In this document: piece by piece, positions 16,062-59,027 of the stretch
How the letters are laid out: each line of letters starts with the position of its first letter
Position numbering within the stretch: the first letter of the stretch is position 1
Assembly: GCA_976551045.1 (NCBI GenBank)
Contig: CDPCPM010000060.1
Span: 26,412,001-26,476,000 of the forward strand
Direction: 5' to 3'
DNA: 64,000 nt
Source of the DNA: Glaucostegus cemiculus
Lineage: Eukaryota
Notes under the pieces: model-generated
What the model was told of the DNA's origin: nothing
Database searches by the model: none
What the model saw: only the letters and a program-made list of their open reading frames with translations
Made by a program: the position numbers and the translations under genes

Positions 16062-16255
16062 AACAGAAATAAAAAATGCTGGAAGCACTCAGCAGGTCAG
16101 ACAGCATCCGTAGAAAGAGAAACAGAGTTAATATTTCAGGTTGAAGAGCATTTAGCTCTGTGTGCTCTGTTTCCTCTTCCACAGGAGCTGTCTGAAGTGC
16201 TGAGTGTTTCCAGCAGTTTCTGTTTTTATTTCAGATTTTCAGCATCTGCAGTTTT
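16062..16255. repeat. Foldback (head-to-head) Penelope-derived repeat
   Basis: AATGCTGGAAGCACTCAGCAGGTCAGACAGCATCCGTAGAAAGAGAAACAGAG followed by its approximate reverse complement. Confidence 0.75.
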
Positions 16256-32369: not shown

Positions 32370-32545
32370 GGTCTGCTGGAAGAACTCAGCGGGTCGAGTA
32401 GCACCACTGGGAGGAAAGGAACGGTGGACATTTCAGGTCCTTTTCTGCCTTTCCTCCCACAGATGCTGCCCCAACCGCTGAGTTCTTCCAGCAGATTATT
32501 GGTTGCTTCAGATTCCAGCATCTGCAGTCTCTTGTGTCTCCAAGG
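32370..32545. repeat. Foldback Penelope-derived repeat
   Basis: CTGCTGGAAGAACTCAGCGG...GCA.CACTGGGAGGAAAGG followed by CCTTTCCTCCCACAGATGCTGC...CCGCTGAGTTCTTCCAGCAG. Confidence 0.75.
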
Positions 32546-33309: not shown

Positions 33310-33497
33310 AAAATAGCAGAAAAGGCCGGAAGACTCAACCGGTCAGACAGCAACAATGGAAAGAGAAACAGAGTTAACGTTTCTCTGTCAACCCTTGGAC
33401 CTGAGGCATTAACTCTGTTTCTCTCTCCACGGATGCTGCCCGACCTGCTGAGTGTTTCCAGAATTTTCTGGTTTATTTCAGATTTCCAGCATCTGTA
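33310..33497. repeat. Foldback Penelope-derived repeat
   Basis: AGAGAAACAGAGTTAA...TTAACTCTGTTTCTCT inner arms, with outer arms matching the same family. Confidence 0.75.
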
Positions 33498-34173: not shown

Positions 34174-34336
34174 TGCTGGAAATCTGAAATAAAAACAGAA
34201 AATGCTAGAGAGAAAAACAGAGTTAACGTCCGGGTCGACGAAATTTTAGCCTGAAGTATTAACTCTGTTTCCCTCTCCACGGATGCTGCCTGACCTGCTG
34301 AGTGTTTCTAGCATTTTCCGTTTTTTCATTATATTC
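34174..34336. repeat. Foldback Penelope-derived repeat
   Basis: GAAAATGCTAGA...AAACAGAGTTAA...TTAACTCTGTTT...TCTAGCATTTTC. Confidence 0.75.
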
Positions 34337-35574
34337 CAACTGGAAAGTTCTGCTCAAGGTAGTTTTATTTGTTTTATTTAATTTAGTTATCGTTGCCAAA
34401 GTAACGTTTGTACTCCAGCCCCCTGTGTTCATATATGGGAGCAGGGCAGTGGAGTTAATGTGCCCACAGAGCACAAGGATGCACTGCTGCACCCAAGAAA
34501 GTTTAAAGTATTAACATCATCAGAAAGAATGTTGGAACTTTTTTTTCCCTTAAATCCAGCTTTCATGGCAAGGTGCAACTGATACAGGTTCCCTTCAATA
34601 CTGTAAAAAAAACACTTCCAGGATTCCCTTGAGGATCGAGAGCGACAGTTTCTTGCTCCTGAGGTTGTCGGGTATGGAGAAACATGGCAAACTAAAGGGT
34701 GTGAAGCGAACCCGGACTTTTTTGTGTGCAGTGAAGCCCAATATATTATCGAAGTGACCCTATGATCAACAGTACATTGGGTCGTTTCGTCTTCGTTTCG
34801 CCTTATGATTCTGTAATGGGACGCTCAACTAATACCCGGGCAATGTTGAGATGGTTTTGTTACCGGCTGTGGTAGACTCAAAGATTGGGTTCAAATTCCG
34901 TTCTCTGCCAGGGGGAATCCAATAAGTTAGGTAATTTGTAGGTTAGCACTTGGTGATCTGAAGGTAAGACACCAACAATGAACCAATTAGCTGTTTGTCT
35001 TAGTTATCAGAATTTTTATACTGTTTGTCTTAGTTATCAGAATAATTGGCGGAGTGTCACATTACGATTATTCGCCTCAAATTCGTGCATCGCTCGGACC
35101 GATATTCGGTCGTTTGTAAAGTCTGCTCGGGGATGGGATAAAATACCAATGAACCTTTGCGTTATTTTGACGTTGGTGAATCTGTAATTACGGAGGTAGT
35201 GTGGTGGAGACCGTTTGGGGCAGATGTAGTGGGTATAGATGGAAATAATAGGACTGTGATTTATAAACGTTTGAGATGCATGACGGATGGAGGTGAGGAA
35301 TAAGACGGGTTCGTACATCAATAAAAAGTGATAAAACTAACGTTGTCCGCATCTCTAATGTTAAGTATTCTGTGCCATAGTAACCAGCGGAGGATGGATA
35401 GAAGTAACCAGTCAATGCAGAGCGCACGGTGGGAGCAAATAGACCCACTGTAAAAAGTCCTGGGCTAAACTTTCCTGTTTCACACATTTCCCATTCACGG
35501 TACAGCGTCACTTTACCGGTTCCGGCGGGTACCGCATGGGGAGAGGAGGGGAGGGGTGGGGGAAGAACGGGAGG

Positions 35575-40959: not shown

Positions 40960-42849
40960 TATATTATTTACATCTGTGTGTGTATTTTATTTATATATAA
41001 AATATACATGTAATGTACTTTTAAATTTTATATAACATATACCCAAGTATATAGATTTATATATATATTTAAAAAGATCAGGAAAATGGCTTGTCTCACG
41101 GTAACATACCCTGATGGGTCATTTTTGTTCTCTAGTCCTTCAGTGCAACTTTGGTTGATGATCGAACTCACTCGGAATAGAGAGAGGGCAAAACGATGCA
41201 GGCGTGCAGATTATTTTCTTGGAATGTTTAGTTACGAGCGGTAAACCGTGGCTTGTGAGGGCAGATCCTAATCAATTATTTACTCTGCAAAATGTGTGTA
41301 AATAATGGCCTATCTGGAAATCAGTAAAACTATACTGGCGTTGAACGAGATGCCTGAGCGATTAAATGTTGGGTCAGACTGATAAAAATCGTTAAAGATG
41401 TGCAAATGCACCGATACACACCCATTAGACTAGTCATCGACGGGGCACACAAACACACACACATACACACACAGATACTTAGTTATTTAATTGTACATAT
41501 ATAAGAGCGCGTGTGTCTATCTGGAAGAATATATACATATATATATATTCTTCCAGATAGATATAATATGTATGTGCATGTGTATAGCGTGTATGAACAG
41601 ATGTACATGAAATCGCACATCAAAGGACGAACAGGCCACACGCTCAATGTCTGTATGGACACGTGTGTTTATGTTTTTATATGTTAACCAAATGACTCAG
41701 ATATTCCTTCCAGAATGATACCCAACTGCATAACGCTAAATGTCAAGGCATGGAATGAGAAAAGACCAGCAATTCTCGGAACTCTTTATCCAGAATCCCT
41801 GTATTTCATGATGTTCTGCAGAACAGAACGCGGATCATCAGTCACTTAGCAGCGCATTATATTAGACAGGAAGTGTGAGCCTTGATTTCATGTCGGTTGA
41901 CAAGTATTTAAGACATTTTCAGGGACTGTGTGGAGACGGTGTATTGGTAAAAGATGAAGGGTCAGGTAAGCTGTTTGAGGGCTTATACTTTCGATCTATT
42001 TCCATTGGGTTGAGGCTAGTTACCGTTTTAATGAAAGTATCCAGGCAGACGTAGAAAGTTGATTTTTCTACCTGACTGAACCCTTTCAATAAACAGAGCC
42101 GGGCGTCAATAGATCAATGTTTACTTTATTGGTGATTTCGAACTAAATCATGGAGAAACTGGCCGTAGAGCTGAGGTGGATGATAAATTATATAAAGCAA
42201 TTATTAGCCCTGGCGAATCTTTCCCCACTTAATGTCAAGCAGTGGGACTTAATTGCGTGAATAATTGTTATATGAAGACTGGTGTCTAATACTTCACACC
42301 AGATAAACATCACTTTCTTTCCCCCGTAGTACGTATGTACCACAAAATAAATCGGATGATGTATAAAGAGAAAGGAATCGGCTACTGAACACTTGCAGTA
42401 GTGATCGATTCTCATATGATAATTGCAATATTGAACTGTGCTAACATTTAATGTATTTATTGTAGAATTAGCTGTTTATATTTAGATATCAGATATGGAA
42501 TTTGGGTCATACGTTCACAATCATACATTTATAAAATGAGTCAATTATTTTGCCTCCTGTCCATCAACACCGATCTGACTCCGAAGTATGAAAAGTTTAT
42601 AGAGTCATTACTTGCAATGTTGCTTTAGGATAAACGGCCATATAAGGAAAATAGCACGGGGCCGCTCTTATCTTAAAGGGGGCATTATAAGTTTGGCACA
42701 AAAGAGTAATCAGCGTTCCCTGAGTGCTTCCGGTCTTTTCCATGTCTCACCCACGGGAGGAGGGGTGGGTGAGGGTGGGACAATCCCCAAACCGGGGAGC
42801 ATTTCCACTTAAAACGAGCCCGGCGTAAGTGCAGCCCCTGTGTTTGCAC

Positions 42850-50010: not shown

Positions 50011-50200
50011 NNNNNNNNNNNNNNNNNNNNNNNNNNNNNNNNNNNNNNNNNNNNNNNNNNNNNNNNNNNNNNNNNNNNNNNNNNNNNNNNNNNNNNNNNN
50101 NNNNNNNNNNNNNNNNNNNNNNNNNNNNNNNNNNNNNNNNNNNNNNNNNNNNNNNNNNNNNNNNNNNNNNNNNNNNNNNNNNNNNNNNNNNNNNNNNNNN
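50011..50200. other. Assembly gap covering the exon 2 acceptor and 5' part
   Basis: Run of N. Confidence 1.
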
Positions 50201-54375: not shown

Positions 54376-54385
54376 ATGCAGAACA
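54376..54385 (+). CDS. PAX6: Pax6 exon 4 coding part (start codon, M-Q-N-S split)
   Basis: ATGCAGAACA followed by donor gtaagt at 54386. Joins exon 5 (A|GT CAC AGT GGA GTG) to give [13 protein letters not shown], the canonical Pax6 N-terminus. Confidence 0.96.
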
Positions 54386-56897: not shown

Positions 56898-57269
<372 letters not shown>

Positions 57270-57568
57270 TGAAACAGTTTTTAGAAAGGGGTTTTCTACA
57301 ATCCAAAAATGCTTCCTACAAATTACATTCGTACCTTCAAAGTAATTTCTTTCCGAATTGGCAAACAAGCAAGAAATTATCTTGAATTGATTGTAAAATG
57401 GTAACATTCCCCCTGCCATTTAAGGGTTTATTTTTGTATTGTAGACCCAATGTTGAAGCAAAACAAAATTAAGTTTGAAACTTTTTTTTCATAACTTTGG
57501 CACACGCCAAATTGATGCAATATTGGTACGTTTCCCTTTGCCATTTAAGGTATATTTTTGTATTGTAG

Positions 57569-57610
57569 ACCCAAACTGATGCAAAAGTCCAAGTAGTGGA
57601 TAATCGAAAA
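57569..57610 (+). CDS. PAX6: Pax6 alternative exon 5a (14-aa paired-domain insertion)
   Basis: tttttgtattgtag acceptor, gtaagc donor, 42 bp, phase 0. Translates TQTDAKVQVVDNRK, against recalled human THADAKVQVLDNQN. Confidence 0.95.
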
Positions 57611-57741
57611 GTAAGCTCAACGTTGTTTAACTATATTTAAATATCTACATAAATATATATTATAAAACAAAAAATGCCATTTCACATGTTAAACGTTCTT
57701 TGATATATTTGGCTTCCATTTATTCTTATGTGTATATATAG

Positions 57742-57975
<234 letters not shown>

Positions 57976-58148
57976 TAACTTTAACGGAGGGAATAGTGTA
58001 TTTATTACCACCAACGAGTGCACACATAAAAATAAACACTCTGTTTGACATGGACCATTTTTTAGTATATGTGTGGTTTAATTAACAAGAGGACCGGAGC
58101 TAAGGGGTAAACTCCAGATCCCACAAACGTCGTTTTCCCCCCCAATAA

Positions 58149-58508
58149 ATCGTTGACCAAGTTTAATTAATGCATTTGAATTGGCACAGAATTCTAACTG
58201 AAGTTACAACAAGGATTTCTGACGAATTTTACCTCACAGAACACTTTAAATGAACGTTTAAAAATCCATCTTCAAAAGCTAAACACGCAACGATGTGAAA
58301 TGAAATTATTTAATCCAGCGAAATTCTAATCGTTTTGTAATGCTGATCCCAGTAATTATTTTCAAGATTTATTTTAGATTTGGTAGTTAGTTGGTGAAGG
58401 TGCGTACAAAGCTCACTGTGCACTTTTTAATCCAACAGAATCAATTGTTGTACCTTCAGTTACAATTCTGTGCCAATTCACATGCATTAATTAAACTTGG
58501 TCAACGAT
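58149..58508. repeat. 64-bp inverted repeat in intron 6
   Basis: Arms 58149-58212 and 58445-58508 are reverse complements with 3 mismatches. Confidence 0.95.
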
Positions 58509-58781
58509 GCTTGCGGTTTATTTAATTTTGGAATGCTAATTGATATAAATGATTGTTTAGTTACGCAAGTTTTTAAGGATATACTTCACTTAACCACAAA
58601 GTCTGAAGAATCCCTGATCTTAATATGTAATCATTTTCATAGATCAATTGATACTGATTAGACGGCCATAATTCTTGCATGTTAATTTTCTTCTATTTTT
58701 GGTATAAACTCCAAATTATTCTCCTTCATCTTTGATTTTCGACATCCAAACTGCTGCTGTTAAGGGGGAAACGATATTTAA

Positions 58782-59027
<246 letters not shown>

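Follow-up and report, generated by a model that had tools for sequence, protein, structure and literature searches.

The question posed by this locus is what a second, damaged copy of Pax6 exon 5a is doing in the intron immediately upstream of the functional exon, and why its 3' splice site matches that of the exon it resembles. The window, by which we mean the whole 64-kb stretch of DNA analysed, carries a Pax6.1 gene of canonical structure and ends within it (Table 1). The lengths of exons 5 and 6 (131 and 216 nt) equal the vertebrate values given in the available part of Fabian 2015 (PMC4488758), and a protein search with exon 7 returned chondrichthyan sequences as the best named matches. 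Exon 5a has been documented in chimaera and skate (Ravi 2013, PMC3554528; Fabian 2015, PMC4488758; here and below, papers cited by PMC number are used in the portions available). The window encodes His in exon 7 and Thr at position 3 of exon 5a, as do batoids and unlike sharks and chimaera (four batoid species were compared, with a 5a model in only three), a pattern that identifies the host as a batoid. At codon 2 of exon 5a (within 57569-57577) the window encodes Gln, where all eight chondrichthyan 5a peptides compared have His, as do the exon 5a-bearing rows of Figure S2 in Fabian 2015 (PMC4488758); the CAA codon for this Gln is common to copy 1 and copy 2.

Several observations concern the 5' part of the gene. 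An in-frame ATG upstream of exon 5 (57012-57036) opens the peptide MFAVALPLG, which is the N-terminus of the Rhinoraja Pax6 isoform X1 model. Within intron 4, the translation of 56244-56342 matches the N-terminus of a Pax6 gene model from a bat at 59% identity (E 2.6e-7); judged from this similarity, the segment is a conserved intron 4 element, presumably near the P-alpha promoter region. The assembly is a draft with 527 N in the window, including a gap that ends at 50200, some 4 kb before the start codon of Pax6.

Table 1. Coordinates of the Pax6.1 exons, the two exon 5a copies and the intronic pairing elements in the window.
Feature	Position	Strand	Remarks
Pax6.1 first coding exon piece (ATG, exon 4)	54376..54385	+	start codon 54376, donor 54386; MQN start shared with named references
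Pax6.1 exon 5, PAI subdomain	57037..57167	+	131 nt, phase-0 donor
Intronic antisense box	57289..57317	+	core 57289-57311 pairs with -16..+4 of either acceptor; 57314-57317 lengthens the helix
Predicted local hairpin between box and copy 1	57336..57386	+	would shorten their effective distance
Copy 1 of the tandem unit	57385..57508	+	homology clear from 57385 to about 57474, weak farther on
Copy 1 acceptor region	57414..57444	+	candidate branch point, U-rich tract, AG 57443-57444
Exon 5a remnant in copy 1	57445..57468	+	24 nt; 1-nt insertion, 19-nt deletion, in-frame TGA 57454-57456 (its codon 4)
Dead donor of copy 1	57469..57474	+	TT where the 5a donor has GT (57469)
Copy 2 upstream flank and functional 5a acceptor	57510..57568	+	AG at 57567-57568
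Possible substitute donor	57523..57531	+	GT at 57526; its use would give an 81-nt exon with a stop; distance to the 5a AG 43 nt
Exon 5a (copy 2)	57569..57610	+	42 nt, TQTDAKVQVVDNRK; donor at 57611; orthologous peptides found
Pax6.1 exon 6, RED subdomain	57742..57957	+	216 nt
Pax6.1 exon 7	58806..58971	+	

Every coordinate of the tandem unit given in the original prediction, which placed the two copies 124 bp apart, proved accurate. The acceptors described there as identical have AGs ending at 57444 and 57568 and share 22 nt (57429-57450 = 57553-57574), copy 2 is the ordinary 42-nt exon 5a (57569-57610), copy 1 carries a 1-nt insertion and reads ACC CAA TGT TGA with its stop at 57454-57456, and the G|GTACGT proposed as an alternative donor lies at 57525/57526. 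The copies are 79.7% identical over 79 nt (blastn, E 6e-13), and their local alignment score of 93 compares with a maximum of 69 among 2000 shuffles. Besides one (TA)n run and one repeat of 30-nt period at 34991, this is the sole exact direct repeat of at least 20 nt within 500 nt in the window. An identity of about 80% argues against a duplication introduced by assembly, and the several indels between the copies likewise led us to rule out such an artefact. Global alignment carried the homology further than had originally been seen, through the exon 5a body and donor; because copy 1 retains the exon end and the donor, the entire exon 5a with both of its splice sites was duplicated and later disabled. 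Tandem Repeats Finder did not report the unit, and Rfam returned no match to 56900-59000 at E up to 1. A literature search that covered titles, abstract openings and few subscription papers found no description of a duplicated Pax6 5a, and the available portions of Ravi 2013 (PMC3554528) and Fabian 2015 (PMC4488758) mention no 5a duplicate. Dating the duplication by codon parsimony against the His-Ala/His-Thr states was dropped, as it turned on a one-step difference only and the codons of the other species were not seen.

Copy 1 has two marks of a pseudoexon, namely homology to the adjacent exon that includes both splice sites and a set of disabling changes (+1 nt, -19 nt, TGA, GT to TT). Its acceptor block is nearly intact, with one substitution and one insertion in 36 nt, whereas the body of the remnant is decayed relative to copy 2. 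The dead donor forms a U1 duplex of -2.6 kcal/mol compared with -4.5 kcal/mol for the 5a donor, and the substitute donor at 57526 is about equal to the 5a donor by a crude test, with 6/9 consensus matches each and U1 duplexes of -4.9 and -4.5 kcal/mol, respectively. Splicing into 57445 would introduce a stop at codon 51, which would precede the next junction by 69 nt with donor 57526 and by 154 nt with the 5a donor; more junctions follow. By the usual rule, nonsense-mediated decay (NMD) acts on a stop that lies farther than about 50-55 nt ahead of a later junction, so a transcript opened at 57445 would be an NMD target with either donor, as expected of a poison exon. The substitute donor lies only 43 nt from the 5a AG, and given the minimum size of an intron the two sites are too close to serve in one transcript. 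Among 13 named chondrichthyan protein models (eight with 5a and five without), which may not include the host species, none carries an insert other than 5a, and protein searches returned no copy-1-derived insert; this negative is a weak one because stop-containing isoforms are absent from protein sets. Odd Pax6 inserts in langur, carp and bat and in four teleost models were compared and set aside, as they bear no resemblance to copy 1. As a separate observation on copy 2, an AAG|GT occurs 19 nt upstream of the 5a AG (57544-57555), with a pyrimidine tract of 0.82 versus 0.59 for the real acceptor and, at -35, a motif resembling a branch point; splicing there would change the reading frame, and the paralogous AAG of copy 1 is at 57424.

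The original prediction overlooked an intronic antisense box that lies between exon 5 and the duplication and that we found by scanning rather than by prior prediction. In a repeat scan, 57295-57310 is complementary to both acceptors at 15 of 16 positions, and the core helix contains one mismatch, one 3-nt bulge and one G-U pair. The paired arm covers the pyrimidine tract, the AG and exon bases +1 to +4, and duplex folding gives -22.9 kcal/mol for the box with copy 1 and -21.8 kcal/mol for the box with 5a. The 5a peptide of Hypanus opens with Asn rather than Thr, implying a substitution at exon base +2, one of the helix positions. Complementarity of this strength is rare. Three of 5000 dinucleotide shuffles, and none of 284 window tiles, equalled the best duplex (-22.4 kcal/mol) that the 5a acceptor forms within the 217 nt upstream of the duplication. 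A compact-duplex test gave z values of -4.7 for the 5a acceptor and -4.3 for that of copy 1, with none of 300 shuffles as good in either case; the same test applied to other acceptors gave +0.9 for exon 5, -0.6 and -0.2 for exon 6 (two regions) and +0.3 for exon 7. With a looser test that allowed large loops, partners of -20 to -25 kcal/mol were found for other acceptors too. Inverted repeats of box quality within 300 nt number nine in the 64-kb window outside the (TA)n run, and two of these are the box/acceptor pairs. An apparent extension of the box over the exon 5a body (57263-57281 with 57573-57590) was rejected as evidence, given that it was equalled in 569 of 5000 shuffles and in 857 of 1907 tiles. 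The 5a acceptor (57544-57573) is also predicted to form a bulged duplex of -25.3 kcal/mol with exon 6 at its 3' end (up to about 57954). Within the limits of the literature search described above, we found no account of a pairing box over the Pax6 5a acceptor or of a cis RNA structure controlling 5a, and no paper linking the 14-nt acceptor motif to PAX6. A catalogue of conserved complementary regions (PMC8052449) has no PAX6 entry in five supplement files, which perhaps do not hold the full catalogue.

The scan for inverted repeats also brought up elements elsewhere in the window. In Pax6 intron 6, 58149-58212 and 58445-58508 form a 64-bp inverted repeat with arms 95% complementary and 232 nt apart; its fold of -125.7 kcal/mol has a z of -12.6, with none of 100 shuffles as good. 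There is no second copy of it in the window and no obvious target-site duplication, and it may be what is left of a MITE or else a long duplex serving as an ADAR substrate, close to the exon 6 donor that is subject to alternative splicing. Shorter inverted repeats of 18-24 nt occur at 16077-16215, 32371-32496, 33357-33429, 34191-34325 and 41514-41563, of which 16077-16215 and 32371-32496 share a motif and look like the ends of a small mobile element.

To describe how the box might be shared between the acceptors, we folded the RNA at three temperatures, with the pairing span either limited to 300 nt or left free; these folds are thermodynamic, with neither proteins nor spliceosome. The box is predicted to be paired to one acceptor or the other at 0.83-0.94 in all 24 native folds, and copy 1 predominates in 14 of the 18 folds that contain both acceptors. 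The 5a acceptor wins in the other four, at 0.68-0.86 when the intron alone is folded with its span left free and at 0.49 versus 0.40 in a single truncated construct at 37 C. In these models the winning acceptor depends on the window folded, and the span limit favours copy 1 because it bars some longer pairs to copy 2. In a nascent RNA ending at 57505, before copy 2, the box is predicted to sit on copy 1 at 0.85-0.91, and once transcribed the copy 1 acceptor would lie within a duplex of 23-27 bp with the box; when copy 1 is removed, the box moves to the 5a acceptor at 0.90-0.92. The two pairings are predicted to be mutually exclusive and nearly equal in energy, with ensemble energies of the forced helices within 3 kcal/mol, of either sign, in all ten comparisons. 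The fold of 57280-57460 has a z of -3.3, and 1 of 200 shuffles was equally good. The 5a acceptor is predicted to be unpaired at 0.06-0.08 without copy 1 and at 0.08-0.39 in the native RNA, and removal of the box raises its accessibility only to 0.20-0.31 because other partners exist. The gain in 5a-acceptor accessibility predicted by these folds is thus modest.

We tentatively propose that copy 1, as a masked pseudoexon, and exon 5a compete for one RNA silencer, the intronic antisense box, a reading that we consider plausible but far from assured. A tandem duplication of exon 5a and its flanks left copy 1, which was then disabled by the change of its donor from GT to TT, by the deletion and by the stop, and its acceptor would persist as one arm of an RNA duplex. 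The single box would pair with the tract, the AG and the four first exon bases of either copy 1 or 5a, never both. Being nearer to the box and transcribed first, copy 1 would tend to capture it; occupation of the box by copy 1 would partly free the 5a acceptor and shift the Pax6:Pax6(5a) ratio, and little poison splicing would be expected since the box masks the copy 1 acceptor. We infer that the duplex forms in vivo and represses 5a, that the box is older than the duplication and that selection keeps the copy 1 arm. A broader form of the proposal, which we regard as rather unlikely, is that an antisense box masking a 3' splice site sets 5a inclusion, perhaps as an old gnathostome control, and that in this batoid lineage selection has kept a dead duplicate solely as an intramolecular sponge (a cis RNA decoy) that tunes Pax6:Pax6(5a), possibly in a manner dependent on elongation rate or temperature. 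The original prediction had suggested a retained decoy acceptor, and that idea would survive here as a decoy for an intronic RNA silencer, not for the spliceosome. No pseudoexon acting as a cis RNA decoy was described in the titles, abstract openings and few subscription papers searched.

It is quite possible, if somewhat less probable than the competition proposed above, that copy 1 is a neutrally decaying pseudoexon without effect on splicing, that the box is unpaired in vivo or irrelevant, and that the 22 identical nt are due to chance, to constraint acting on copy 2 alone or to gene conversion over a short tract between repeats lying 124 bp apart. The copies differ at none of 20 core positions, at 7 of 39 positions in the branch-point, exon and donor segments (a comparison set chosen as other segments likely to be constrained in copy 2) and at 10 of 29 positions in the upstream flank; the core differs from the other segments with a Fisher p of 0.045, or 0.014 when three indels are counted. 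Both the core helix and the run of identity begin at 57429; the helix ends at 57448 and the run at 57450, 2 nt farther on, which counts against a relic. Also awkward for a relic are the significance of the box for the 5a acceptor, shared by none of the three constitutive acceptors examined, and the consideration that if the duplex forms at all, an identical and nearer arm must compete for it. Neutral decay nevertheless goes some way towards explaining what is seen: the donor is lost, part of the exon body is deleted, the flank has diverged, and a longest run this long arose in as many as 567 of 20000 permutations. An identical run of at least 22 nt occurred in 1.6-25% of neutral simulations, depending on rate, and with decay set at 18% per site, 341 of 4000 runs retained a duplex no weaker than the native one (192-608 runs at 24% to 12%); pairing strength is kept in 5-15% of simulations and the copy 1 AG in 59-77%. 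The shared CAA, encoding Gln where other 5a peptides have His, is as expected from conversion or a late duplication, and unannotated tandem exon copies are common (PMC9013439). The retained block also spans a candidate branch-point 10-mer that lies mostly outside the helix, and its retention would be no less compatible with an acceptor in use or with gene conversion. Repeats this close would be expected to acquire a comparable island through gene conversion, and outside the core the rate could have been increased by selection for inactivation of the duplicate. Because some neutral simulations keep the pairing or a long run, the evidence from these comparisons for selection on the copy 1 arm is suggestive, not decisive. 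Homogenization of both acceptors by template switching from the box is unlikely, we infer, because both acceptors share the same bases at the positions mismatched to the box.

The remaining explanations assign a role to the copy 1 acceptor that requires it to be recognized. Copy 1 could bind U2AF and U2 without completing splicing and thereby delay or divert recognition of the 5a acceptor, with the box incidental; retention of the candidate branch-point 10-mer, tract and AG alongside loss of the donor would suit such a spliceosomal decoy. We consider it highly improbable, since a masked acceptor binds U2AF poorly and since the box, the retained tract purines and exon bases +2 to +4 are left unexplained, although the latter is a weak point alone. 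The original prediction saw in copy 1 a potential poison exon, that is, regulated use of its acceptor to open an exon of 81 nt when closed at 57526 or of 166 nt when closed at the 5a donor, with the stop directing the transcript to NMD and trimming Pax6 dose; the box could then be the gate. Part of this stands, as a complete acceptor has been kept better than the rest of the copy, the acceptor block is nearly intact, the substitute donor scores like the 5a donor and the stop is NMD-compatible at 69 or 154 nt before the next junction; moreover, PAX6 is dosage-sensitive (PMC6947179) and RNA-structure-gated cases are known in BRD2 and BRD3, in the portions available of the sources. We nonetheless judge it unlikely. 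The native donor is dead, the opposite of what selection for inclusion would be expected to leave, in the nascent transcript the acceptor would by prediction be 85-91% masked, what remains of the exon body is not conserved, and none of the chondrichthyan protein models has a non-5a insert, in protein sets that cannot reveal stop-containing isoforms.

Competition between two acceptors for one box recalls the docking/selector systems of Dscam1 exon 6, 14-3-3zeta, Mhc and MRP1 and of human ATE1 R1/R3/R4 (PMC6071210, PMC7797038). In the Ivanov-Pervouchine model, duplication of one stem arm yields two elements that compete for the other arm (PMC6071210), and ATE1 is a tested vertebrate case that depends on co-transcriptional folding (PMC7797038). 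Here, too, homologous exons carrying a stem arm are tandemly duplicated, the box is complementary to two elements and is predicted to pair with one at a time, and the outcome may hinge on co-transcriptional folding. Selectors, however, lie in introns and by pairing expose or activate the exon next to them (PMC6071210), whereas the duplicated arm here is the 3' splice site itself, covering tract, AG and +1 to +4, and pairing would mask the exon. Nor are both exons functional, copy 1 having a stop, a deletion and no donor; with the second exon dead, the output would be the inclusion level of a cassette exon rather than a mutually exclusive choice. For both reasons the arrangement would work like competing-structure systems without being a member of the class. 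Like the poison exons of SR-protein genes, SCN1A 20N and BRD2/BRD3, as far as the available descriptions go, copy 1 has an intact acceptor followed by an in-frame stop that satisfies the NMD distance rule, but its own donor is destroyed, its body is not conserved and its acceptor is predicted to be masked. Copy 2 resembles the gnathostome Pax6(5a) cassette exon (PMC3554528, PMC4488758) in its 42-nt length, its usual place and a peptide 1-2 residues from those of other chondrichthyans; it differs in the Gln for His and in having a duplicate and an intronic pairing element, neither of which is described in the available parts of those papers. Copy 1 also resembles unannotated tandem exon duplicates, in which a degenerate homologous copy adjoins a functional exon (PMC9013439), except that here a third, inverted element pairs, by prediction, with the acceptor segment of both copies. 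In human minigenes, inclusion of 5a, a shortened exon 6 and exon 5 skipping have been reported (PMC11936725, PMC9863980), and an intron 5 splicing enhancer for exon 5 has been hypothesised (PMC11936725). The available text of these two papers describes no box-like duplex over the 5a acceptor, and that of PMC1182360 gives no cis mechanism.

If copy 1 is only a relic, it would be a minor, lineage-specific pseudoexon, and the duplex between the box and the 5a acceptor remains the part worth checking. The box offers a concrete and cheaply testable mechanism for control of 5a. If other vertebrates prove to have an equivalent box, it would be relevant to deep-intronic PAX6 variants and to splice-switching oligonucleotides. 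Finally, the duplicate would be a natural snapshot of the proposed route from the copying of a stem arm to competing structures, in which the competitor here is a dead exon.
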